A stretch of 64,000 nucleotides of DNA, from positions 89,131 to 153,130 of the IMG/VR virus record IMGVR_UViG_3300032092_000004, one strand, 5' to 3'. Below are positions 2,679-22,388 of this stretch, in pieces. The stretch's first letter is position 1. Each line of letters opens with the position of its first letter. Under the pieces are notes generated by a model. The model did not search any database and had not been told where the DNA came from. It saw nothing but the letters and a program-made list of their open reading frames with translations. The DNA is from a virus. The position numbers and the translations under genes are program-made.

Positions 2679-5234
2679 CTAACTATTTAACCCATTTCCA
2701 CCCAAAAGTACAGCGTTCATTTGAGTTACAGAACCACCATTAAGACCTATCCAAACCGGATGTGGAACACTCACCAATGAAGCACTTCCATCACAAATAA
2801 GACAGTCAATATATTCGGTGTTTGCACTGATAGGTATAACATAACCATTACATATTTCACATTCTGAGAAGAGTTCTAATGCGGTATATTCTGATTCAAG
2901 AGGAACACTCAAAAGACCGGTAAATTTATATGCGTTTAAATTGGCGATTTCAGTAAAATTACCACCAACCAATATATTACCATTTGATTGTAATTTTATT
3001 GAATAAATTTCTGAGCCTTGGTTAAATCCACTACCAACGTTAAAATTTGTATCTATAGATCCATCTGAGTTTAATCTTACTATTTCACCTTCAGATAAAC
3101 CATTGTATGAATTAAAAGGACCACCAGCTAAGATTTTTCCATCTGATTGTAATGCTGATGCATAAACATTACCAGCAAATCCACTACCAATAGAAAAACT
3201 AGAATCTATTGATCCATCAGAGTTTAATCTAATAATTCTATTTCTGGATGACCCACTATAAGTTGTGAAAGTACCCACAACTAATATTTTTCCATCCGAC
3301 TGAACTTCAATATCCCAAACAATACTGTTAAATCCGGTACCAACAACAAAACTAGAATCTATTGACCCGCCTGTGTTTAATCTAATAATCCTATTAATAG
3401 ATACACCACTATATGATGTAAAATTACCACCAACTAATATCTTCCCGTCTGATTGTATGTTAATTTTAAATACCGAATTGGCCGTAAATCCAGTACCAAT
3501 AACAAAACTAGAATCTATTGATCCATCGGTATTTAATCTAACTATACAATTTCTACTTACACCACTATAAGAAGAAAAATAACCCCCAACTAATATTTTC
3601 CCATCTGTTTGTATTTCAATACTATTTACATTACTAGTAAATCCTGTACCAATAGAAAAACTATTATCGATAGATCCATCGGTATTTAATCTAACGATTC
3701 TATTTTTAGTCACACTACTATATGATGTAAATAGACCACCAACTAATAACTTTCCGTCTGATTGTGGTGTAATTACGGTAACTCGGTTATTAAATCCGGT
3801 ACCAATAACAAAACTAGTGTCTACTGTATAGTCGGTGTTTAATCTAATAATCCTATTTATGGATACCCCACTATATGATGTAAAATCACCACCAACTAAT
3901 ATTTTTCCATCTGTTTGTGTTTGAATAGCCCATACGGAACCATTAAATCCAGTTCCAATATCAAAAAGAGGGTTTATATTGTTGAACGATTCATTCAATG
4001 CCTCGTAACATCTAAAATCTGTCGTGTATAATATTGGGTTATTATCTAAAGAATCTAATTGACAAATACGATTGCAAAAATATCCATTAAATTTTGTGAA
4101 GGAACTACCACCAACAATTATTTTTCCGTTTGAATTTGTCACAAACGAAATAACACTACCGTCAAACCCGAAGCCAGTTACAAAACTAGAATCTATTGAT
4201 CCATCAGAGTTTAATTTAATAATTCTATTTTTAGATACCCCACTATACGTTGTGAAATCACCACCAACTAATATTTTTCCATCCGACTGAACTTCAATAT
4301 CCCTAACATTATTGTCAAATCCAGTTCCAATAACAAAACTTCCATCTTTGCCACCATTAGAGTTTAATCTAACAATATAATTATCAATTGATCCACCAAA
4401 TGTTATAAAATTACCACCAATTAATACCTTCCCGTCTGATTGTAATGCAATTGAAAAGACGGTAGCTTCATCTATACCGGTACCACTATTCCATGATACG
4501 TCTCTTGTTCCATCTGAATTTAATCTTACTATACCAGAACCAATATAAGCTCCATTATATTGAGTAAATCCACCACCAACAATTATTTTTCCGTCTGGTT
4601 GGTATTGAATTGCGAAAACAGATCCATCACCCCCTTCACCATAAGTATTATAAAATCCTGAACCGGTATTAAATGTATTATCTATCGATCCATTAGTATT
4701 TAATCTTATTAAACTCGCACCTACTGATACCCCACTATAAGAAGTAAAATAACCACCAACCAATATCTTTCCGTCCGATTGTAACTCAAGATCATAAGGG
4801 GGTAAATTCAAACCGGACCCAATACTAAAACTGTTGTCAATAGACCCGTCTGTGTTTAATCTAATGATATAATTTCTGGCAACACCACTATACGATGTAA
4901 AACCACCAACAACTAATATTTTCCCATCTGTTTGTACTTCAATATCACTTACATACGATGTAAAACCACTTCCATTAACAAAACTATCATCAACAGAACC
5001 ATCAGTATTTAATCTAACAATATAATTTTTGGCAACACCACTATAAGAAGTAAAATAACCCCCAACTAATATCTTCCCGTCTGATTGTAACTTTACACTA
5101 TTAATTTGATTGTTAACCCCAGACCCAATATCAAAACCAACATTTGGAATACCTGGTAATGGAATCGATAAATCCCCTCCATCAATATATTTGTTTTCGC
5201 CTGTTAGGCAAGATTCGCAGTAGTATGTACTCAT
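2679..5234 (-). CDS. Delta-60 repeat double beta-propeller protein (probable virion/adhesion protein)
   Basis: 14 repeats of Q.DGKILVGG.FT.Y.G...N.I.RLN.DGS.D.SF arranged 7+7. Confidence 0.85.
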   Translation of the reverse strand: MSTYYCESCLTGENKYIDGGDLSIPLPGIPNVGFDIGSGVNNQINSVKLQSDGKILVGGYFTSYSGVAKNYIVRLNTDGSVDDSFVNGSGFTSYVSDIEVQTDGKILVVGGFTSYSGVARNYIIRLNTDGSIDNSFSIGSGLNLPPYDLELQSDGKILVGGYFTSYSGVSVGASLIRLNTNGSIDNTFNTGSGFYNTYGEGGDGSVFAIQYQPDGKIIVGGGFTQYNGAYIGSGIVRLNSDGTRDVSWNSGTGIDEATVFSIALQSDGKVLIGGNFITFGGSIDNYIVRLNSNGGKDGSFVIGTGFDNNVRDIEVQSDGKILVGGDFTTYSGVSKNRIIKLNSDGSIDSSFVTGFGFDGSVISFVTNSNGKIIVGGSSFTKFNGYFCNRICQLDSLDNNPILYTTDFRCYEALNESFNNINPLFDIGTGFNGSVWAIQTQTDGKILVGGDFTSYSGVSINRIIRLNTDYTVDTSFVIGTGFNNRVTVITPQSDGKLLVGGLFTSYSSVTKNRIVRLNTDGSIDNSFSIGTGFTSNVNSIEIQTDGKILVGGYFSSYSGVSRNCIVRLNTDGSIDSSFVIGTGFTANSVFKINIQSDGKILVGGNFTSYSGVSINRIIRLNTGGSIDSSFVVGTGFNSIVWDIEVQSDGKILVVGTFTTYSGSSRNRIIRLNSDGSIDSSFSIGSGFAGNVYASALQSDGKILAGGPFNSYNGLSEGEIVRLNSDGSIDTNFNVGSGFNQGSEIYSIKLQSNGNILVGGNFTEIANLNAYKFTGLLSVPLESEYTALELFSECEICNGYVIPISANTEYIDCLICDGSASLVSVPHPVWIGLNGGSVTQMNAVLLGGNGLNS

Positions 5235-13132: not shown

Positions 13133-13552
13133 ATGGAAAAAGTATTATATATCGTTAGAGGAATACCGGGTAGTGGAAAATCCACATTGGCAAAAAGATT
13201 GGTTGGTGAAGATTTTTTGGTTTGCGAAGCCGATAAATATTTTATCAATGAAGAAAATGGTAAATATGAATTCGATATTTCAAAAATAAGAGACGCTCAT
13301 AAATGGTGTCAAAATTTAGTTGAAACTTACATGAGGGATAGTCTAATTAATGACCAGTATTATCGTGAAATTGCGGTATCCAACACATTTACACAGGAAT
13401 GGGAAATGGAACCGTATTTTGAATTGGCTAAAAAATATGGGTATAAAGTATTTTGTGTTGTTGTTGAAAATAGACATGGTGGTAAAAATCAACATGATGT
13501 TCCTGAAGAAAAGATTGAGTTAATGAAAGAAAGATTTGAAATAAAATTATAA
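13133..13552 (+). CDS. P-loop polynucleotide-kinase-like protein (AAA_33 type)
   Basis: RGIPGSGKST Walker A, EADKYF, VSNTF. Confidence 0.82.
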   Translation: MEKVLYIVRGIPGSGKSTLAKRLVGEDFLVCEADKYFINEENGKYEFDISKIRDAHKWCQNLVETYMRDSLINDQYYREIAVSNTFTQEWEMEPYFELAKKYGYKVFCVVVENRHGGKNQHDVPEEKIELMKERFEIKL

Positions 13553-14205
13553 TGAAGTTTGATAAAATATTAACAACAGGTAAAGTGTGGGTTACATCGG
13601 ATCCACACTATAACCACAAAAATATTTGTAGGGGAGTCACCAATTGGCGAACAAAAGATGGACTTGTACCTGATTTGTCAACAAGGGATTTCCCAACATT
13701 AGAACTAATGAACTCAACATTAGTAGAAAATATCAATGCAAAAGTTGGTCAGGATGATACTTTAATTATTTTGGGTGATGTGGCTTTTGGCGGATTTGAA
13801 AATATTGGAATTTTCTTAAACAGATTGGTATGTAAAAACATTCACTTGGTTCTTGGGAATCACGATCACCACATTAGAAACAACAGAGATAACATCAAAG
13901 ATATGTTTATATCTGTTAGTGATTACTTACAGGTTAATATTTTTGGGGTTGACTTTGTAATGACTCACTACCCATTTGAAAGTTGGAATGGTCTTAACAA
14001 AGGTGTTATTCACCTTCACGGACACGTTCATTTACCTATGAATAAAAAGTGGGGTAAAGGTAAACGATTGGATGTTGGTGTTGATGGAAACAACTTACAA
14101 CCGTATAGTATTACTGAGATTGTTCACATGATGGACAAACGAGAAATTGCATCTCAGATGGACGATGATCACCATTTAGACGATTTAGTTGGGGTTGTAG
14201 GATAA
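13552..14205 (+). CDS. Calcineurin-like metallophosphoesterase
   Basis: SDPH, LGD, GNHD, HGHVH motifs. Confidence 0.88.
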   Translation: MKFDKILTTGKVWVTSDPHYNHKNICRGVTNWRTKDGLVPDLSTRDFPTLELMNSTLVENINAKVGQDDTLIILGDVAFGGFENIGIFLNRLVCKNIHLVLGNHDHHIRNNRDNIKDMFISVSDYLQVNIFGVDFVMTHYPFESWNGLNKGVIHLHGHVHLPMNKKWGKGKRLDVGVDGNNLQPYSITEIVHMMDKREIASQMDDDHHLDDLVGVVG

Positions 14206-14219
14206 ACTACAACTCCAAC
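14188..14219 (+). terminator. Hairpin over stop codon (possible terminator or processing site)
   Basis: GTTGGGGTTGTAG/CTACAACTCCAAC 13-bp stem; no clear U tail. Confidence 0.45.
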
Positions 14220-14231
14220 ATATTTATTGTT

Positions 14232-15479
14232 ATGAGAAATATTGTTATTACCGAAAGTCAATTAAAATTAATTACAGAAGCTTTAGGCGTTCCTGATTAT
14301 ATTTTAGATGCGGCTGAGATGTTATATGATGTTGTTGAAAAAGACATCAAATCAATAGATAGTGTTGAAGATGAATATGAATTCGATGGTGAGATTGAAT
14401 TTGAGTTAGGTGATAAGAAAAAAATCAAAATTGATTCTTATGAATTAAAAGTAGAAATAGAAAAAGTAGAAGGTCACGGAGATGGAGTGATAGACATCAT
14501 CTCAATGGGTATGTCTGGTGGGTTTGGATTTAACAGAGATGTTTATATGAAAGAAACTCAACCATCGACAACTTTGGAATTAACAATAACATTTGCGGTT
14601 GGCGAAAATTGGGAACCTGAACAACTAATTAAAAAAATGGAGGAAGAAAGAGATGAATATGTTGCATCTTTGGCTCATGAAATTAAACACAAATACGACA
14701 AACAATCAAAAAAGTTTGGTTTAATCGGTCCTGATGCTACATATCAAGCAACACAAAGAAGGGGTAATTTTGGAATACCAGTATTAGATAGAGTTTTCTT
14801 TAGGTATATGTATTATATCCACGGTATTGAAAACCTCGTTAGACCCGTTGAGGTTGCATCTTCAATGAGAAGTAAAAACGTTACAAAATCACAATTTTTG
14901 GATTTCTTACAAAACAATAGAGTATTCAGAGAGTTGGTGGAAATTAAAAAATTCACATTTGAGGATTTTATTAATGAGTTAAAAGAAAATGAAGATAGGT
15001 TAGATGCTCTTATTGAACATATAGGTGAAGATCCATCTGAAATGACTTTAGATGAGAAAATTAATAGAGTATTGGAAGTTGCTTACATTGATTTAGTTAA
15101 TAATAGAATGGAGATTTTTGTTATAATGACACAACATCATATGGATGATATGATAAAATTTGGGGGACAACTTGGGATGTTACCGCCAAATTTAGATGAT
15201 GAGGTAAAAAAATTAGAAAAAACAGATGAGATTAGACGGAAGTTTTTATCTTATGTGACGAAATATGAAAAGAACCCAACTAAATTCTTTGAAGATGAAA
15301 TCGAGAACTTTCAATACATTGCAAACAAAATGTTAAAGAAAATATCAAAACTATATTCTATGGCAAAAGACGACGAACAAGTTAGTGAATCAATTCTAAA
15401 TTGGGATCTTCACCAACAAATCATGGAAAAAAAATACGGTACAAGAAAAATAGAAACCGAATACAAGTTTAAGAGATAA
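14232..15479 (+). CDS. Tagged protein with HExxH motif (possible zincin)
   Basis: MRNIVITESQLKLITEA; LAHEIKHKY. Confidence 0.6.
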   Translation: MRNIVITESQLKLITEALGVPDYILDAAEMLYDVVEKDIKSIDSVEDEYEFDGEIEFELGDKKKIKIDSYELKVEIEKVEGHGDGVIDIISMGMSGGFGFNRDVYMKETQPSTTLELTITFAVGENWEPEQLIKKMEEERDEYVASLAHEIKHKYDKQSKKFGLIGPDATYQATQRRGNFGIPVLDRVFFRYMYYIHGIENLVRPVEVASSMRSKNVTKSQFLDFLQNNRVFRELVEIKKFTFEDFINELKENEDRLDALIEHIGEDPSEMTLDEKINRVLEVAYIDLVNNRMEIFVIMTQHHMDDMIKFGGQLGMLPPNLDDEVKKLEKTDEIRRKFLSYVTKYEKNPTKFFEDEIENFQYIANKMLKKISKLYSMAKDDEQVSESILNWDLHQQIMEKKYGTRKIETEYKFKR

Positions 15480-15524
15480 CCCCAAAATCTTTATTTATTG
15501 ATATTTTTTTCATATTTTAATAAT

Positions 15525-15890
15525 ATGAGAAAATTATTCATACCAATATTATTTTTAACTTTATCGTTAACAATTCCTGGTGAAGTATATAAAGGTACCG
15601 CATCATACTATGGTCAGAACTATACAGGAAGATTAACAGCATCGGGTGAAAAGTTCCATAAAGATAGTTTATTCGCAGCACATAAAACCTTGAAGTTCGG
15701 AACTTTAGTTAAAGTTATTAATCTGATTAATGATTCTGTTAGGTTTGTAAAAATAAACGACAGATTACCAAAATCATCCAAACACATAATAGATTTATCA
15801 TATGGTACCGCAAAAGAATTGAATTTTATTAAACGAGGTATCGTTCCTGTATCTATTGAAATTGTTGGATCACTACCAATTAAAAAATAA
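15525..15890 (+). CDS. rlpA: RlpA-family double-psi beta-barrel lytic transglycosylase
   Basis: Signal peptide; GTASYYG, TASGE, AAHKTL, VKINDR, IDLS. Confidence 0.88.
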   Translation: MRKLFIPILFLTLSLTIPGEVYKGTASYYGQNYTGRLTASGEKFHKDSLFAAHKTLKFGTLVKVINLINDSVRFVKINDRLPKSSKHIIDLSYGTAKELNFIKRGIVPVSIEIVGSLPIKK

Positions 15891-15927
15891 TTTTGTTTTA
15901 TTAGGAAAGTTTTCTTATCTTTGTTCT

Positions 15928-16155
15928 ATGTGGACAACTAAAGAAACTAAAAGAGAATATCGTGGTTTTGAGATCATCAAGTATGAAGGATCCAAGATGA
16001 AGGATTATTTTAGAAAAAAAGACCCAAGGACATTTCAAAATGGTGATAGTAAGTTCACCAAGTGGCATTCCTACGAAGTAACCATTGATGGTGTTAAATA
16101 TGATTTTGACAAGTTAAAGGATTCAAAAGAATTTATTGACTCAAAGTTAAAATGA
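15928..16155 (+). CDS. Hypothetical protein
   Basis: ATG 4 nt after TATCTTTG. Confidence 0.6.
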   Translation: MWTTKETKREYRGFEIIKYEGSKMKDYFRKKDPRTFQNGDSKFTKWHSYEVTIDGVKYDFDKLKDSKEFIDSKLK

Positions 16156-16343
16156 AAAAACCTTGTAAAGAATGTCCACATGTGATTCGTAATCGTCATA
16201 ATGATATGATTGTTGACTTTGGTCGTAGAACTGGTAAAAAACATAATTGTCATATGACCGAAGGAGTTAAAGATTTGTGGAATGTTAAAGATGGAAAATT
16301 AGAATGTTATGGATCAAAGAGAGATAATTTACGGAGTGTGTGA
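16152..16343 (+). CDS. Small Cys/His-rich protein
   Basis: PCKECP...HNCH...C. Confidence 0.6.
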   Translation: MKKPCKECPHVIRNRHNDMIVDFGRRTGKKHNCHMTEGVKDLWNVKDGKLECYGSKRDNLRSV

Positions 16344-16530
16344 TAAGACAGGATCTTGTGATTCCTACTTCGGATTCTTCAAAACCAAAGAAGATGCTGA
16401 ACACGAGGTATCTGTACAGGCAAAACGACTCAAAGAAGATTTGGGAATGATGGATATTGACATCCGATCAGACCGAGCGTTATACAATGGTAAATTAGTA
16501 ATAGTAATTCATTCATATGTATTGAGATGA
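16309..16530 (+). CDS. Hypothetical protein (paralog of 19389..19634)
   Basis: IYGVCD...CDSYFGFFK shared motif. Confidence 0.65.
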   Translation: MDQREIIYGVCDKTGSCDSYFGFFKTKEDAEHEVSVQAKRLKEDLGMMDIDIRSDRALYNGKLVIVIHSYVLR

Positions 16531-16889
16531 AAAAAATAGAGACAAAATTTGGAACCTATATGGAAAGAGAAGATGACCCTACAAAATTGACTGGTGATAA
16601 AATCAAGGTCTTTGTAGAAAGATTAAAAAAACTTGGAATTGAAATTAAACTTAAGGGTAATTTCCCTTGGGTTTATATTGATGAAATCTGTGGTATTAAA
16701 GTGAATGAGAGGTTATATGGTAATCACGGTTTTACTTTGATATTCTTACCGGGTAGGATCGATAGTCCACCATCTGATTTTACGGATATTACTGAGACTT
16801 TCAAACTAATACGAAAGTATAGTAGAAAAGCTTTGTTGATTCAGATGATGAAAGACGATGAAAAAGATGGTATGTATGATGTTGAATGA
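16527..16889 (+). CDS. Hypothetical protein
   Basis: 120-aa ORF, ATGA-coupled. Confidence 0.65.
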   Translation: MKKIETKFGTYMEREDDPTKLTGDKIKVFVERLKKLGIEIKLKGNFPWVYIDEICGIKVNERLYGNHGFTLIFLPGRIDSPPSDFTDITETFKLIRKYSRKALLIQMMKDDEKDGMYDVE

Positions 16890-17265
16890 GTTAAGGGTAG
16901 GTAGTATTGTGACCCACCCACTTTTTGAAACTCCAACTAATGTTAAGGCGATTGCATTTAACGGACTTTATATTGGAACCAAAGATGGTTTACCACTACA
17001 TATTGACGACTTTAACCCCGTTAAAATAACTGATGAGGTTTTGGAGTTACTTCATTTTGTTAAGATGAAAGACACGGCACTTGGTATTGGTGAGTTTGAT
17101 TGGTGGGAAACAGATGATATATCACTTACACACATACATAAAGGTTTATACGGCATCGAAGGATTAAGTGGTATTAAACCGATGAAATATGTTCACGAAT
17201 TACAAAATGCGTATTTTGTGATAACAGGAAAAGAATTGAATACAGAAAAATTATTATATTTGTAA
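16876..17265 (+). CDS. Hypothetical phage protein
   Basis: NELRVG...KYVHELQN.YF.ITGKEL pattern. Confidence 0.65.
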   Translation: MMLNELRVGSIVTHPLFETPTNVKAIAFNGLYIGTKDGLPLHIDDFNPVKITDEVLELLHFVKMKDTALGIGEFDWWETDDISLTHIHKGLYGIEGLSGIKPMKYVHELQNAYFVITGKELNTEKLLYL

Positions 17266-17267
17266 AA

Positions 17268-17678
17268 ATGGAAAAAGCAAGAATTTATTTAGATGATGTA
17301 AGAACACCTGTTGATCCAAGTTGGACAGTAGTTCGTTCTTATGACGAGTTTGTAAGTAAGGTAAAAGAGATTGGTTTAGAAAATATTGAACTAATTTCTT
17401 TGGACCACGATTTGGGTGATAGTGCAATGAAAGAATGGTTACATGGTGTTGTTAGAAACTATGAAATCAACTATGATAACATCACCGAAAAGACTGGTAT
17501 GGATTGTGCCAAGTGGTTGGTTAATCAGTGGATGGATGGTAAACCACTTGTTGATGTTGTAGTACATTCACACAATGCTATTGGTGCGGGTAATATGATG
17601 GGATATATTAACAATTATCGACACATCAACAAATTACCACAAAATTGTAACAGAGTATTTTGGGAACACACAATATAA
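17268..17678 (+). CDS. Cyclic-phosphate-processing receiver-like domain protein
   Basis: YLDDVRTP, SLDHDLG, TGMDCAKWL, VHSHN motifs. Confidence 0.75.
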   Translation: MEKARIYLDDVRTPVDPSWTVVRSYDEFVSKVKEIGLENIELISLDHDLGDSAMKEWLHGVVRNYEINYDNITEKTGMDCAKWLVNQWMDGKPLVDVVVHSHNAIGAGNMMGYINNYRHINKLPQNCNRVFWEHTI

Positions 17679-17688
17679 AAAAATAGTT

Positions 17689-17952
17689 ATGGAATTAGAA
17701 AAATTTGAACAAGCAAAAAAAGTTAAAGAAAACCTTGATAGATTGGAAAGACAGAAGCGTAAATTGGAATCCGCTTTAGAATCTTGTTCTTTAAATGTGA
17801 CGATTGAATTTAAACCGTCAAAGGTATTTCTCTCAAGAAAAGATGAGGTTAGTGTTTATAGTAAAGACGCCATTAAAGAAATGATATCTAAAGAACTTGA
17901 CAGGTTGAATAGTGAAATAGAGTTAGTAAAAGAAGAATTTGAAAACGTATAA
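17689..17952 (+). CDS. Hypothetical coiled-coil protein
   Basis: 87-aa ORF. Confidence 0.6.
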   Translation: MELEKFEQAKKVKENLDRLERQKRKLESALESCSLNVTIEFKPSKVFLSRKDEVSVYSKDAIKEMISKELDRLNSEIELVKEEFENV

Positions 17953-17955
17953 GAA

Positions 17956-19089
17956 ATGGAAAATTTAAATAGTGTATGTTATGTTGGTGTGATCGGTGAG
18001 ATTCGACCAATAGAAGGGGCAGATAACATAGAACTTGCAATGGTTGGTGGATGGCATGCCATTACCAAAAAAGGCGAATACAGTGTAGGTGATAAGGTTG
18101 TTGTTGCAACTACCGATGCGGTAATCCCTGTTGAGTTATCTGACTTGATGGGTGTGACTGGATACTTGAGAAAAGGTCAAAGAGTTAGAACTGTGAAATT
18201 ACGTGGAGTTTACTCTGAGTGCTTGTTAATACCATTCAAATACTTAGCGCCAAAATCTTTGGAGAACAATGTAAGTGAAGGTCACGATATGATGGGTATC
18301 TTGGGTGTTACCAAATACGAACCACCAGTTAAGATGGTTGAGATGAGTGTTGGAGGTAGAAAATTCAAATACCACCAAAACCCTAACTTCCATGTTTACC
18401 ACAAGTTCCCTAACTTGAAGAATGTGCCTGAGTTATTTACCGAGGAGGATAGAGTATCTATCACTCGTAAACTTCACGGAACCAATGCTCGTTACGGTAT
18501 AGTTAGAAAGAAAAAACTTTCTATCTTGGATCGTATCAAAAAATTCTTTGGAAACAAATGGGTTGAGTTTGATTATGTTTATGGATCTCATAATGTTGAA
18601 AAAGGATCTACTTCTCAAGGGTTCTACTCTACTGATGTTTGGAGAACCGCCGATGGGGACTACAACATCCAAGAAAAGTTGTGGAACTACGTAAAAAAAC
18701 ATTACACGCCTAAAATGTTAGGAAGTGGTATTGTTATCTATGGTGAGATCTACGGACACGGAATCCAAAAGAACTACGATTATGGTTTAACTGATATTCG
18801 TTTTGCGGGATTTGACGTTGAGGTTAATGGTGAATACTTACCGTTCTTTACTGAGAGAGGTATATTCGAAGAGTTAGATTTACCGAAGGTTGATGTGCTA
18901 TATACAGGTCCTTGGGAGAAAGAAACTCAAGATAGTTTTGTATTCAATAACTTTATAGAAGGAACTAAAGTTCCGCACGAAGGTATTGTTGTAAAATGCT
19001 TGAGTGGTGATCGTCACAAAGTAGCGAAGGTAATCAATCCTGATTACCTCATCTACGGAGAGAAGAATAATGTTGGTGACTCCCATTGA
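17956..19089 (+). CDS. RNA ligase, DRB0094/Rnl2-like with N-terminal OB domain
   Basis: PIEGADNIE N-domain; motif I KLHGTN, YGEIYG, FDV, EGIVV, KVIN. Confidence 0.88.
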   Translation: MENLNSVCYVGVIGEIRPIEGADNIELAMVGGWHAITKKGEYSVGDKVVVATTDAVIPVELSDLMGVTGYLRKGQRVRTVKLRGVYSECLLIPFKYLAPKSLENNVSEGHDMMGILGVTKYEPPVKMVEMSVGGRKFKYHQNPNFHVYHKFPNLKNVPELFTEEDRVSITRKLHGTNARYGIVRKKKLSILDRIKKFFGNKWVEFDYVYGSHNVEKGSTSQGFYSTDVWRTADGDYNIQEKLWNYVKKHYTPKMLGSGIVIYGEIYGHGIQKNYDYGLTDIRFAGFDVEVNGEYLPFFTERGIFEELDLPKVDVLYTGPWEKETQDSFVFNNFIEGTKVPHEGIVVKCLSGDRHKVAKVINPDYLIYGEKNNVGDSH

Positions 19090-19106
19090 TGGAGTCACCT
19101 TTTTTT
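19075..19106 (+). terminator. Intrinsic terminator
   Basis: GGTGACTCC/GGAGTCACC stem followed by T7. Confidence 0.82.
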
Positions 19107-19128
19107 ATTATTATTTAAAAAAAAAATT

Positions 19129-19389
19129 ATGGCAATATTTTGGACACAAGCAGAAGTAGATTTATCGGTTGATGAGATCTACGAAAATTTATCAGATCGT
19201 GAAGTTCTGAAGTTGGTTGATTTATTTGTTGAAGAAGGTTTGGTTATCTCAACTAACACAAGTAAAAATGAAAGTATGAGTTTTTTAGATGAAGAGTGGA
19301 AGAAGACACTATTGAATCTGATGAACAACAGACACAGGCTTTCAAATGAAGATGAAGAAACAATTAAGACACTCGCTAACAAACTATAA
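19129..19389 (+). CDS. Hypothetical protein
   Basis: 86-aa ORF. Confidence 0.6.
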   Translation: MAIFWTQAEVDLSVDEIYENLSDREVLKLVDLFVEEGLVISTNTSKNESMSFLDEEWKKTLLNLMNNRHRLSNEDEETIKTLANKL

Positions 19390-19634
19390 TGACAAAAGAA
19401 AACGACCTGATCTACGGGGTCTACGACAGAACAAGAGGAGTGGGTGGTTGTGACGACTACTTTGGGTACTTCAAAAAAGAATCAGACGCGAGAACAGAAA
19501 TGAAAGCTCAATTTGAACACTTAAAAACAAAAAACCCAAAAGAAACTCTGAAACTCCATAAAGATAGAGTTGTGAAAGTAAAAGATAAAACAGAAGAAAT
19601 ATTAATAATTATACACCCAATTTTAGTAAGATGA
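19389..19634 (+). CDS. Hypothetical protein (paralog of 16309..16530)
   Basis: IYGVYD...CDDYFGYFK. Confidence 0.65.
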   Translation: MTKENDLIYGVYDRTRGVGGCDDYFGYFKKESDARTEMKAQFEHLKTKNPKETLKLHKDRVVKVKDKTEEILIIIHPILVR

Positions 19635-20620
19635 GAGAGGACCAAATTCAAGACTACATCCAAGAGTTAAAGATGATTGAAGAAATGGAAAATATTAGAA
19701 TACCAAACGATTATATTGAAACAACTAGTTATGATGATGACAAGATTGTAACTAATTCACCAACATGTTGGGGAACATTACAAGATGAAGAGTTTGTACC
19801 AGCATTTAAATCAGTTCCTAAAGTACCATCCGGTATTTATGAAATTGTTTGGAACAGACAATTAAATCAACACACATTAAAAAAACAACCATTCAAGACA
19901 GATGAGTTGTATCAGTTACCTTCTTATGAAATTATAGATATCCTTAAAGACATTCAAAATTTTTGGGATCGTAAAGACAAGTATAAAGAATATAGTTTTG
20001 TTCACAAAAGAGGTATTTTAATGTATGGTGAACCAGGTTGTGGTAAGTCAGGTATTATTCAGTTAATCTCAAAACAATTAATTGAAAATGATGGTATTAT
20101 CATTAACATTAAAGATCAAGAAGATATTGATTACTTCATGGATTTTATTGCGACATTCAGAAAGATTGAACCAGATCGACCATTGATTGTTTTATTAGAA
20201 GACATAGACTCAATTGCCGGTGAGAATAGCCACTCAACAAGTAGATTGTTAAACATCTTAGATGGTGTAAAACAGATTGAAGATGTGGTGTATATTGCAA
20301 CAACCAACTATCCTGAAAAACTACAAGATCGTATTACTAACAGACCATCTCGTTTCGATAGAAGATACAAAGTTGAATTACCAAACGATGAGATTCGTGA
20401 AGCATATATTCGTCACAAATTAACAGACGAAGATATAAAAAATGTTGATGTCCAAGAATGGGTAAAAAGAACAGACGGAATGTCACTTTCACACTTGAAA
20501 GAAGTTGTAATTTCAACTATAGTTATGGGAAGAGAATTTGAGGAAGTGATGGATAACCTCGAAGGATTAAAGAAAGCACCATCAATTAAAGGATCAGGAA
20601 AAGTAGGATTTGGACGATGA
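19631..20620 (+). CDS. AAA+ ATPase
   Basis: GEPGCGKS Walker A, LLEDID Walker B, TTNYPE, RPSRFDR arginine finger. Confidence 0.9.
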   Translation: MREDQIQDYIQELKMIEEMENIRIPNDYIETTSYDDDKIVTNSPTCWGTLQDEEFVPAFKSVPKVPSGIYEIVWNRQLNQHTLKKQPFKTDELYQLPSYEIIDILKDIQNFWDRKDKYKEYSFVHKRGILMYGEPGCGKSGIIQLISKQLIENDGIIINIKDQEDIDYFMDFIATFRKIEPDRPLIVLLEDIDSIAGENSHSTSRLLNILDGVKQIEDVVYIATTNYPEKLQDRITNRPSRFDRRYKVELPNDEIREAYIRHKLTDEDIKNVDVQEWVKRTDGMSLSHLKEVVISTIVMGREFEEVMDNLEGLKKAPSIKGSGKVGFGR

Positions 20621-20769
20621 AAAAAGGAATTTATTATGTGCCATTATTTTTAATTTTGTTATTCGTAATGGGAGGAACATTTTATGTTGAGGATCGATTA
20701 GGATTTGCAATGTCTACATTATCATTGTTATTATTAGGTGAAGTTTATTATTTAAGATTTTTAAAATGA
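20617..20769 (+). CDS. Small 2-TM membrane protein (50 aa), not in ORF track
   Basis: Manual translation; ATGA coupling on both sides. Confidence 0.55.
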   Translation: MKKGIYYVPLFLILLFVMGGTFYVEDRLGFAMSTLSLLLLGEVYYLRFLK

Positions 20770-20933
20770 AGAATTTTAGTTTAATTATTGGATTGATATT
20801 ATTATCAAGTTGTAAAACATCAAAAAGTAACTGTGATGCATACTCATCATACGAGATAAAAGTAGAACACTGCCATATTGAGGAAGAAAATTATTGTTAT
20901 TATACAGTTGATACAATTCGCTTGACCAAGTAA
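20766..20933 (+). CDS. Small lipoprotein (55 aa), not in ORF track
   Basis: MKNFSLIIGLILLSSC lipobox. Confidence 0.6.
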   Translation: MKNFSLIIGLILLSSCKTSKSNCDAYSSYEIKVEHCHIEEENYCYYTVDTIRLTK

Positions 20934-20969
20934 AAAAGATTACTTATACTTTCAAAACAAAAATAAAAC

Positions 20970-21404
20970 ATGACAATTAAACAGGCACTTAAACAGAAAA
21001 ACAAACTGGTTAAAAACATTGCTGAGAACACGAAGTTGATGCAACAACACAACTCAGTTGAGGTTGGTAACCAAAGACCATACAGCACGGTGGTGTTGTA
21101 TAAAGAAATCCAAAAAGACACCAAAGAATTGGCGTCTTTGAAGGCAAAAATCCACATCGCAAACGCAGAGGTGATGGAAGACATCTTTTGGATGTCAGAA
21201 ATGAAATCCACAATTGCGGCCCTAAAGAAAATGGACTGTACTGAAGGAAAATCAAATCGTGACCGTTACCGAATGGAAAGTGAAGTGGTTTTAACTTCTG
21301 AAATCTCTTTAGTGAATAGAAATCAAGAGATCAAATTGTTGGAATCAAAAATTGAAGAAATTCAAGATAAGTTGGACACCTTCAACGTAACCACTGAAAT
21401 TTAA
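20970..21404 (+). CDS. DIP1984-like coiled-coil protein
   Basis: M.IKQALK N-terminus, LKAKIHIAN, C-terminal IQDKLDTFNVTTEI. Confidence 0.65.
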   Translation: MTIKQALKQKNKLVKNIAENTKLMQQHNSVEVGNQRPYSTVVLYKEIQKDTKELASLKAKIHIANAEVMEDIFWMSEMKSTIAALKKMDCTEGKSNRDRYRMESEVVLTSEISLVNRNQEIKLLESKIEEIQDKLDTFNVTTEI

Positions 21405-21583
21405 TATGGTTTGTAGATAGGGTTAAAAAGTTATGGTTGTTCTACACTTAGTATCCGACTGGATGGATAATTGATGAAGATAACGAACTGACATTAAACG
21501 AAATTTCAAATATTCAAAAGTCATTTGATTAAAACTTAAAACTCTCTTTTGAACCTATTTTCGACTCTTGAAACAAATCATAT
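21404..21583 (+). ncRNA. Candidate structured ncRNA (~180 nt)
   Basis: Nested long-range stems 21404-14/21573-83 and 21415-30/21546-60, internal hairpin 21452-69, short A-rich repeats; followed by a terminator. Confidence 0.55.
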
Positions 21584-21700
21584 GAACCCCTATCCTTGTG
21601 GTGGGGGTTTTTAAAAGACCCCATCCTTAGTGGTGGGCTTTTAGGACCGTTATCCGTTAGGGTAACGATTTAAAGGGGGAATTCGCTACTCCCCCTTTTC
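21584..21700 (+). terminator. Train of four GC-rich hairpins including terminator(s)
   Basis: Hairpins at ~21585-21611, 21613-21642, 21647-21667 and 21672-21699. Confidence 0.65.
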
Positions 21701-21800
21701 TATTTGGCATATACCATTATCATTTGTATATGTGGGGAATTTTATTTATATTTGTGGTAATTATGTTGGCTATTTTTAAAAAAAATCAAAAACTCAAACG

Positions 21801-22388
21801 ATGAAAGTTTTATTTTTAGATAATGATGGTGTAATCTGTCTCTCAAATAATTGGGGTGGAAGAACAAAAAAATGGGCTAAATACCGAAGTGAATATCCTG
21901 ACAGTAGTAAAGAAAAAAAAGAGGCTCCTGTTGATTATCGCTTTGATGATTTTGATAAAAAGGCTGTTAAGGTATTAAATGAGATCGTCGAAGAAACAGG
22001 ATGTGAGATTGTTGTTAGCTCTGATTGGAAATTACACGCGACACTTGAAGAACTTGGTGATTACTACGAAAGTCAAGGAATTATCAAACGACCAATCGCG
22101 TTAACACCAAACATTCAGAATTGTACCGCTCATAGCGATTTATTTATATGGTCACCACAATGGGAGTTAGAACAAACACGAACTCTTGAGATTAGACAAT
22201 ACTTACACGATCATCCTGAAGTTACTCATTGGGTTTCAGTTGATGATTTGAACATGGGTAAGAATGGTGAACCTTGGAAAGACGCTTGGGCAATTGATAA
22301 TTTTGTTTTAACACCTAAATCAAATGAGGGTATCAAACAAAGTGGAGTAAAAGAAAAAATTATTAAATTTTTAAATGATGGTGAATAA
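21801..22388 (+). CDS. HAD-family phosphatase of the Swiss-Army-Knife RNA repair type
   Basis: FLDNDGV, VVSSDW, VSVDDL. Confidence 0.8.
   Translation: MKVLFLDNDGVICLSNNWGGRTKKWAKYRSEYPDSSKEKKEAPVDYRFDDFDKKAVKVLNEIVEETGCEIVVSSDWKLHATLEELGDYYESQGIIKRPIALTPNIQNCTAHSDLFIWSPQWELEQTRTLEIRQYLHDHPEVTHWVSVDDLNMGKNGEPWKDAWAIDNFVLTPKSNEGIKQSGVKEKIIKFLNDGE

Follow-up and report, generated by a model that had tools for sequence, protein, structure and literature searches.

Introduction

Type III toxin-antitoxin systems, which include ToxIN, CptIN and TenpIN, combine an RNase toxin with a repeat-bearing RNA antitoxin built from 35–55-nt pseudoknot repeats. Oligomers of the TRAP or Hfq type read spaced triplets. 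Paired ends are typical of processed, stable RNAs. In rtcB operons, the gene for Ro60/Rsr lies beside a Y RNA (YrlA) with paired ends (10.1101/312249), and a Band-7 protein is predicted to pair with a non-coding RNA, the b7a-tRNA, beside RtcB (as cited in 10.1101/312249). In phages, sets of RNA end-healing and sealing genes have been described as RNA-repair kits (PMC7824862), and in cyanobacteria, long tRNA arrays lie among RNA-processing genes and are induced by translational stress (PMC8421152, PMC10272220).

The DIP1984/DUF6847 family (NF038048, PF20935) includes a Corynebacterium diphtheriae protein whose structure, PDB 3KDQ, was released in 2009, and its members are often labelled "septicolysin". 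Septicolysin proper is a cholesterol-dependent cytolysin, a beta-rich, four-domain pore former of about 500 aa. The literature covered on DIP1984, DUF6847, 3KDQ and septicolysin, one key review with a possible mention lying outside it, yielded no functional study of the family, no partner RNA and no paper on a gene-plus-RNA pair. Here, a phage gene of this family is described together with the element behind it, which is conserved, structured, non-coding, tied to one protein family and equipped with an array of periodic units. The pair is a real protein–RNA family, which apparently has no published description.

The locus and its genome setting

The window, a stretch of 64,000 nt from a lake phage, is part of a 153-kb virus record that has a completeness of 49% (CheckV), a G+C content of 32% and no tRNA genes; the contigs of close relatives reach about 300 kb. 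Within 8 kb upstream of the DIP1984-like gene, profile matches identify a metallophosphoesterase, a cyclic-phosphate receiver domain (cREC), an RNA ligase (1.9 kb from the gene) and an AAA ATPase, while a HAD_SAK_2 phosphatase gene comes after the gene and its RNA (Table 1). The preliminary description placed the pair between the AAA ATPase and the HAD phosphatase; both do flank it, but two ORFs of 50–55 aa separate the AAA gene from the DIP1984-like gene. It was correct that the largest non-coding stretch of the window begins here, as no non-coding gap of the window, or of the whole 153-kb contig, is larger than that at 21405–21800 (396 nt).

Table 1. Features of the locus, in window coordinates
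Feature	Position	Strand	Remarks
RNA end-healing/sealing genes: metallophosphoesterase, cREC receiver, DRB0094-type ligase, HAD_SAK_2	13552–22388		Profile matches
Two short ORFs, a hydrophobic one of 50 aa and a lipoprotein-like one of 55 aa	20617–20933		Between the AAA gene and the protein–RNA unit
Promoter-like site (TTGACC, 17 nt, TATACT)	20922–20950	+	Like site upstream of most near-clade homologues
DIP1984/DUF6847-fold protein, 144 aa	20970–21404	+	Three long helices with a beta hairpin; predicted to form an antiparallel dimer
Structured non-coding RNA, about 180 nt	21404–21583	+	Begins within the stop codon
P1, 5' strand	21404–21414	+	Partner 21573–21583
4x4 internal loop (RGAU/UGAA)	21415–21418	+	With 21569–21572; conserved
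P2, 5' strand	21419–21429	+	Partner 21558–21568
Small hairpin, 4-nt loop	21453–21464	+	Covarying
Three GAU units	21466–21481	+	7- and 6-nt spacing; first two can pair with 21520–21530
UYA array	21499–21544	+	Units at 21506, 21514, 21521, 21529, 21536; spacing 8-7-8-7; conserved box at end
P1, 3' strand	21573–21583	+
Terminator-like hairpin and U tract	21585–21612	+	Sequence varies among homologues, yet one is usually present

Promoters of the TTGAC/TATACT type, as found before the DUF6847 gene, are rare in the window genome. Homologues of the far clade instead carry a TTTG/TAnnTTTG site at equal spacing upstream of the gene, and when the window sequence is read, a site of this type is also seen before the HAD gene (21723–21754). 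TTTG/TAnnTTTG is the promoter type of Bacteroidota, and the site before the HAD gene points to a bacterium of this phylum as the host of the window phage. No promoter of the RNA's own was seen in the locus. A terminator had been claimed to follow the RNA; other analyses do see a hairpin with a U tract there, but a dedicated terminator scan has no entry at this position. From these signals, promoter, gene, 180-nt RNA and terminator appear to form one unit, and this unit is self-contained, since a promoter-like site lies upstream of most homologues while the neighbouring genes vary.

The remaining gap is filled by a second, separate element of three hairpins (21615–21700), unrelated to the 180-nt RNA. 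Its 27-nt core is found without mismatch in 18 viral contigs, where the fetched DNA contains a HAD_SAK_2 gene in 16 and a DUF6847 gene in only 5. The element has no Rfam match and is possibly another small RNA.

The DIP1984/DUF6847 protein

The ORF encodes a protein of 144 aa. Its predicted structure (pLDDT 90) matches 3KDQ over the full length, with Z 13.2, rmsd 2.9 and 140 of 144 residues aligned; the next structural match has Z 9.2, and a second structure search likewise ranked 3KDQ first (TM 0.70–0.79). Identity to 3KDQ is about 15%, and the profile scores fall below the curated cut-offs (NF038048, 30 bits versus 70, E 4e-7; PF20935, 19 versus 27), with PF20935 matched by 11 of 29 homologues. 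In addition, same-family clusters were found for the window protein in a protein atlas. Related clusters at 50% identity number about 1,700. The proposed likeness to DIP1984 is thus borne out by the fold and by weak profile matches, and the window protein is a divergent clade of DIP1984/DUF6847 by fold, outside the curated models NF038048 and PF20935. A direct comparison of phage and bacterial protein profiles gave a weak match (probability 17%, E 0.0015). In Deinococcus radiodurans, a laboratory organism, one match exceeds the PF20935 cut-off.

A PDB sequence search with the window protein was empty, PHROGs returned nothing useful and PADLOC no convincing match. Among the structure matches listed, of which 3KDQ is the best, there is no nuclease fold and no toxin. 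Identity with septicolysin, or any cholesterol-dependent cytolysin, is ruled out because proteins of the family are helical and 144–152 aa long. One shortened homologue of 114 aa (L270, 2908–3252) still has a strong RNA match directly behind it.

A four-copy prediction supports self-association of the protein, possibly by drawing on the model's memory of 3KDQ: the score was 0.58 versus 0.10 for the best control, contacts agreed by 86% between runs and pLDDT was at least 84. Of 30 solved homo-pairs, 20 reached the mark for this score, as did 1 of 23 single chains. The confident predicted interface spans residues 21–112 and leaves the N-terminal helix outside. This helix, with a net charge of +4 and invariant K4, Q5, K8, K10 and N11, is a natural candidate for RNA contact. 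Against RNA binding, the protein as a whole is near neutral (pI 7.8).

Architecture of the RNA

The consensus fold of the phage RNA comprises P1, the 4x4 loop, P2, the small hairpin and a core helix. P1 corresponds to the outer helix of the preliminary description; its pair probability is 0.91–1.0, and across 30 homologues pairing stands at 96.7% and compensatory changes occur. The hairpin said to lie within it is also supported, here by covariation. The second helix proposed earlier (21415–30/21546–60) has a pair probability of at most 0.15 and 68% pairing in homologues, and was rejected in favour of the competing P2, where these values reach up to 0.84 and 86%. The earlier pairing is probably a wrong, minor register. 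The 4x4 internal loop between P1 and P2 has a sequence that would be compatible with tandem G-A pairs.

The 7–8-nt periodicity, noticed from the start, is far over chance. TCA spacings of 7, 8, 15 and 22 nt were seen 32, 18, 30 and 16 times, versus about 2–3 times in shuffled sequences; the periodicity is about ten times the shuffled level. The interior of the RNA has about six UYA units, spaced 7-8-7-8-7 nt; the one at 21499 is degenerate in the window. A full ladder, in which every GAU pairs with a UCA unit, was considered and rejected: the first two rungs are 82–88% paired, and the inner rungs 64–66%, without compensation. In the near clade, the likely start site in the leader of the gene has one TTCA; the leader contains no unit array.

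At the gathering score, Rfam finds nothing in the window, and at E up to 10, chance matches only. ARAGORN makes no tRNA call on the phage RNA, and a T-arm is present in 0 of 68 phage RNAs.

Conservation and linkage in phages

Whether the element is an RNA at all has to be decided between species. On its own, the window sequence folds no better than its shuffles (z −1.5), which would suit an element of the DNA, an extension of the coding sequence by read-through or a chance A+T-rich feature, and the case for an RNA therefore rests on comparison. In the homologous viral loci inspected, an element of 170–200 nt runs from the stop codon and mostly ends at the terminator. Over 16 homologues with 59–80% protein identity, identity to the window is 0.70 for the RNA and 0.71 for the coding sequence, versus 0.43 at fourfold sites and 0.50–0.53 in the flanks. 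In a sequence-only alignment, 83.8% of cells are paired and 14 pairs have changed on both sides; none of 500 shuffles reaches this degree of pairing, and slid controls give 34–53%.

A model-fitted alignment of 57 RNAs, which leans to the structure, is 87% paired, and pairs 21408–21579 and 21454–21463 beat all tree-based nulls in it. The corresponding tree-based test, of low power, on 37 RNAs aligned by sequence only brings only 21454–21463 near significance (E about 0.07). Changes consistent with G-U pairing indicate the plus strand, and the reverse strand folds with z −0.6. A read-through extension was rejected because a second stop lies three codons on and indels are of any length. With conservation far over that of silent sites, an origin as something other than RNA is hardly credible, and we regard the conserved RNA as real with near certainty.

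The RNA is closely tied to its gene. A model of the phage RNA (R1) gave one match behind the gene in all 57 phage loci, 33 or so of which are near the training set, with no off-target match in 411 kb and a single copy in the window phage genome. Eight far phage-type loci (L062, L064, L066, L068, L069, L071, L153 and L157) miss R1 at E 1 with filters, and their folds show end-closing stems. A pattern search with the RNA core returned 14 viral contigs, every one already known to carry the gene, and no phage RNA was found without its gene. In three loci (L136, L140 and L148), gene and RNA are separated by a 62-codon ORF (about 2939–3125) that encodes two CxxC motifs. The RNA remains intact there, which argues that it does not act on the gene's stop codon. 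A HAD_SAK_2 gene is near 41 of 78 phage loci and an RNA ligase near 19 of 78, neighbourhoods that may reflect shared synteny.

The RNA behind bacterial DIP1984 genes

Absence of a conserved structure downstream of homologues was checked for, and the structure was found to be kept in bacteria as well as in phages. Bacterial DIP1984 genes are patchy, present in 1 of 301 and about 4 of 401 genomes in two phyla, and are followed by an RNA of roughly 200 nt in which 28 of 34 predicted pairs have changed on both sides. These RNAs carry period-7 [G/U]YA units, and 58 of 67 have a T-loop motif. A model of the bacterial RNA (R2) matches every locus searched with enough sequence, weakly in Acinetobacter, and Rfam, YrlA included, has no match to these RNAs. 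The phage RNA model gave no match to bacterial RNAs, nor the bacterial model to phage RNAs; what is shared is therefore position, end-to-end closure and the period-7 track, and homology of the two RNAs rests on position and plan.

In an alignment of bacterial RNAs (A4), an invariant GGUA near the 5' end complements a near-invariant UACC, and internal C-runs are matched by complementary G-runs close to the 3' end. This suggests pseudoknots, as judged from the aligned sequences.

Such modules bear on what the RNA is for. As a switch in cis, it would be a 3' UTR that is never freed: the protein would bind repeats in the tail of its own mRNA and set mRNA stability, its real job lying elsewhere. 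The RNA indeed always lies on the same strand, after the gene and before the terminator, and is never found alone. However, the T-arm and likely pseudoknots of the bacterial RNAs go beyond the needs of a simple operator, ORFs or spacers as long as about 340 nt between gene and RNA are tolerated, and the ends of the RNA are paired as in processed RNAs, so we hold a cis switch to be unlikely. The T-arm should also draw tRNA-binding proteins, as expected if the RNA were a sponge or substrate for another factor, such as a host RNA-binding protein or nuclease, and merely co-expressed with the protein. A near-obligate tie to one protein family and period-7 units kept across otherwise unlike RNAs speak against this, and we give it very little weight.

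DIP1984 genes are common on Acinetobacter plasmids, some of them annotated as septicolysin, and 369 plasmid records, 340 from Acinetobacter, carry the gene as a stand-alone unit. Among the loci L165 (2001–2462), L170 (2501–2962) and L169 (2501–2959), Acinetobacter plasmid genes of this family, sometimes labelled septicolysin, encode small helical proteins and are followed by the RNA. A single plasmid locus of the septicolysin-labelled type was opened, and the RNA stands behind the gene.

Movement of the pair as a stand-alone unit would fit an RNA antitoxin, for which the RNAs of type III systems are a precedent. Here, free protein would be toxic or abort infection, and the RNA would keep the protein in an inactive oligomeric form, from which RNA decay or nuclease attack would free it. 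The gene order is nevertheless opposite to that of type III systems, the protein has neither a nuclease fold among the structure matches listed nor a convincing PADLOC match, and protection better fits a location in repair operons and tRNA arrays. An antitoxin function is accordingly judged improbable.

One Acinetobacter record contains, in order, rtcB, an unassigned 166-aa ORF, DIP1984, a 260-nt gap with the RNA, and rtcA. In a set of 89 bacterial loci that is biased to one protein subgroup, raw counts place RtcB, RtcA, TROVE or an RNA ligase near 14 and tRNA genes near 21; most bacterial loci have no repair gene within the fetched flank. In six loci (L226, L227, L233, L240, L244 and L248), the DIP1984–RNA unit closes an array of 10–20 tRNA genes with HNH, RtcB, RNA ligase or AAA genes.

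Proposed mechanism

Our preferred reading is a ribonucleoprotein particle. Judged by the promoter and terminator sites, a single transcript would give both the DUF6847 protein and a stable structured RNA after the stop codon. The protein is predicted to self-associate, and successive subunits may read the 7–8-nt-spaced units, probably via the N-terminal helix, which is basic and stays free in the predicted dimer. Closed by a long stem that joins its two ends, the RNA can probably be excised as a free molecule. Gene context suggests RNA damage or translation stress as the setting in which the particle could act, be it a decoy for RNA-cutting toxins, a sensor of them or a ligase platform, in a way comparable to that proposed for Ro60 with Y RNA in rtcB operons. 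In the window phage, it would belong to a counter-defence kit that also comprises the ligase and phosphatases nearby.

These steps differ in strength. Binding of the RNA by the protein is probable, whereas a role in RNA damage has about an even chance, with gene context as the evidence for repair or decoy. The whole chain, from a self-associating protein on the units through RNA release to a particle in RNA damage or translation stress, could equally go either way. In the preliminary description, a two-component particle had been put forward; linkage, periodic units, predicted self-association and RNA-repair neighbours fit it, but its toxin-antitoxin part has no direct support.

The pair provides a structurally solved, functionless family (3KDQ) with a probable RNA ligand and with a role that can be tested, and adds an RNA class absent from Rfam. 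The window locus brings in a new clade from phages, whose minimal RNA lacks a T-arm and helps to define the shared core, and suggests that phages carry an RNA–protein module within their RNA-repair kits. It also puts in question the pore-forming virulence label "septicolysin" in clinical Acinetobacter papers (e.g. PMC3358182), because the plasmid genes so labelled belong to the small helical DIP1984 family.

Comparison with known systems

The window protein resembles DIP1984/DUF6847 in its full-length fold, weak profile matches and same-family clusters, and the phage clade differs in its low identity to 3KDQ and its scores under the curated cut-offs. Like type III systems, the pair consists of one protein and a cis-encoded, repeat-containing RNA and occurs on plasmids and phages. 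Unlike these, the DUF6847 RNA is downstream and single-copy, its 7–8-nt units lie inside one closed fold and the protein shows no RNase fold among the structure matches listed. The short units at fixed spacing recall TRAP or Hfq, as expected for successive subunits, but the fold is unrelated, the spacing is 7–8 nt and the target is a dedicated adjacent RNA.

With Ro60–YrlA, the pair shares a protein gene beside an RNA with paired ends, a tRNA-like module in the bacterial RNAs and, at some loci, RtcB, RtcA or ligase neighbours. By profile and structure searches, however, the DUF6847 protein is a small helical hairpin without TROVE/vWA, and a TROVE gene is sometimes a separate neighbour of bacterial DIP1984 loci. 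Neither phage nor bacterial RNAs match an Rfam Y RNA or YrlA, and the phage RNA has periodic units and no T-arm, the T-loop occurring in bacterial versions only. Band-7 with b7a-tRNA is likewise a predicted protein and non-coding RNA pair of RNA-repair loci, but the protein is unrelated and the DUF6847 RNA is no tRNA look-alike, having no ARAGORN call.

By analogy, the pair would work most like Ro60–YrlA or Band-7/b7a-tRNA, yet it belongs neither to these nor to type III. Tentatively, and at somewhat less than even odds, DUF6847 proteins and their partner RNAs may be a new ribonucleoprotein class across phages and bacteria: a helical oligomer on a 7-nt-periodic RNA track with exchangeable modules (a tRNA elbow in bacterial RNAs, none in the window phage) that would sense or absorb attack by RNA-cutting toxins and serve RNA repair, a third partner system beside Ro60–Y RNA and Band-7.
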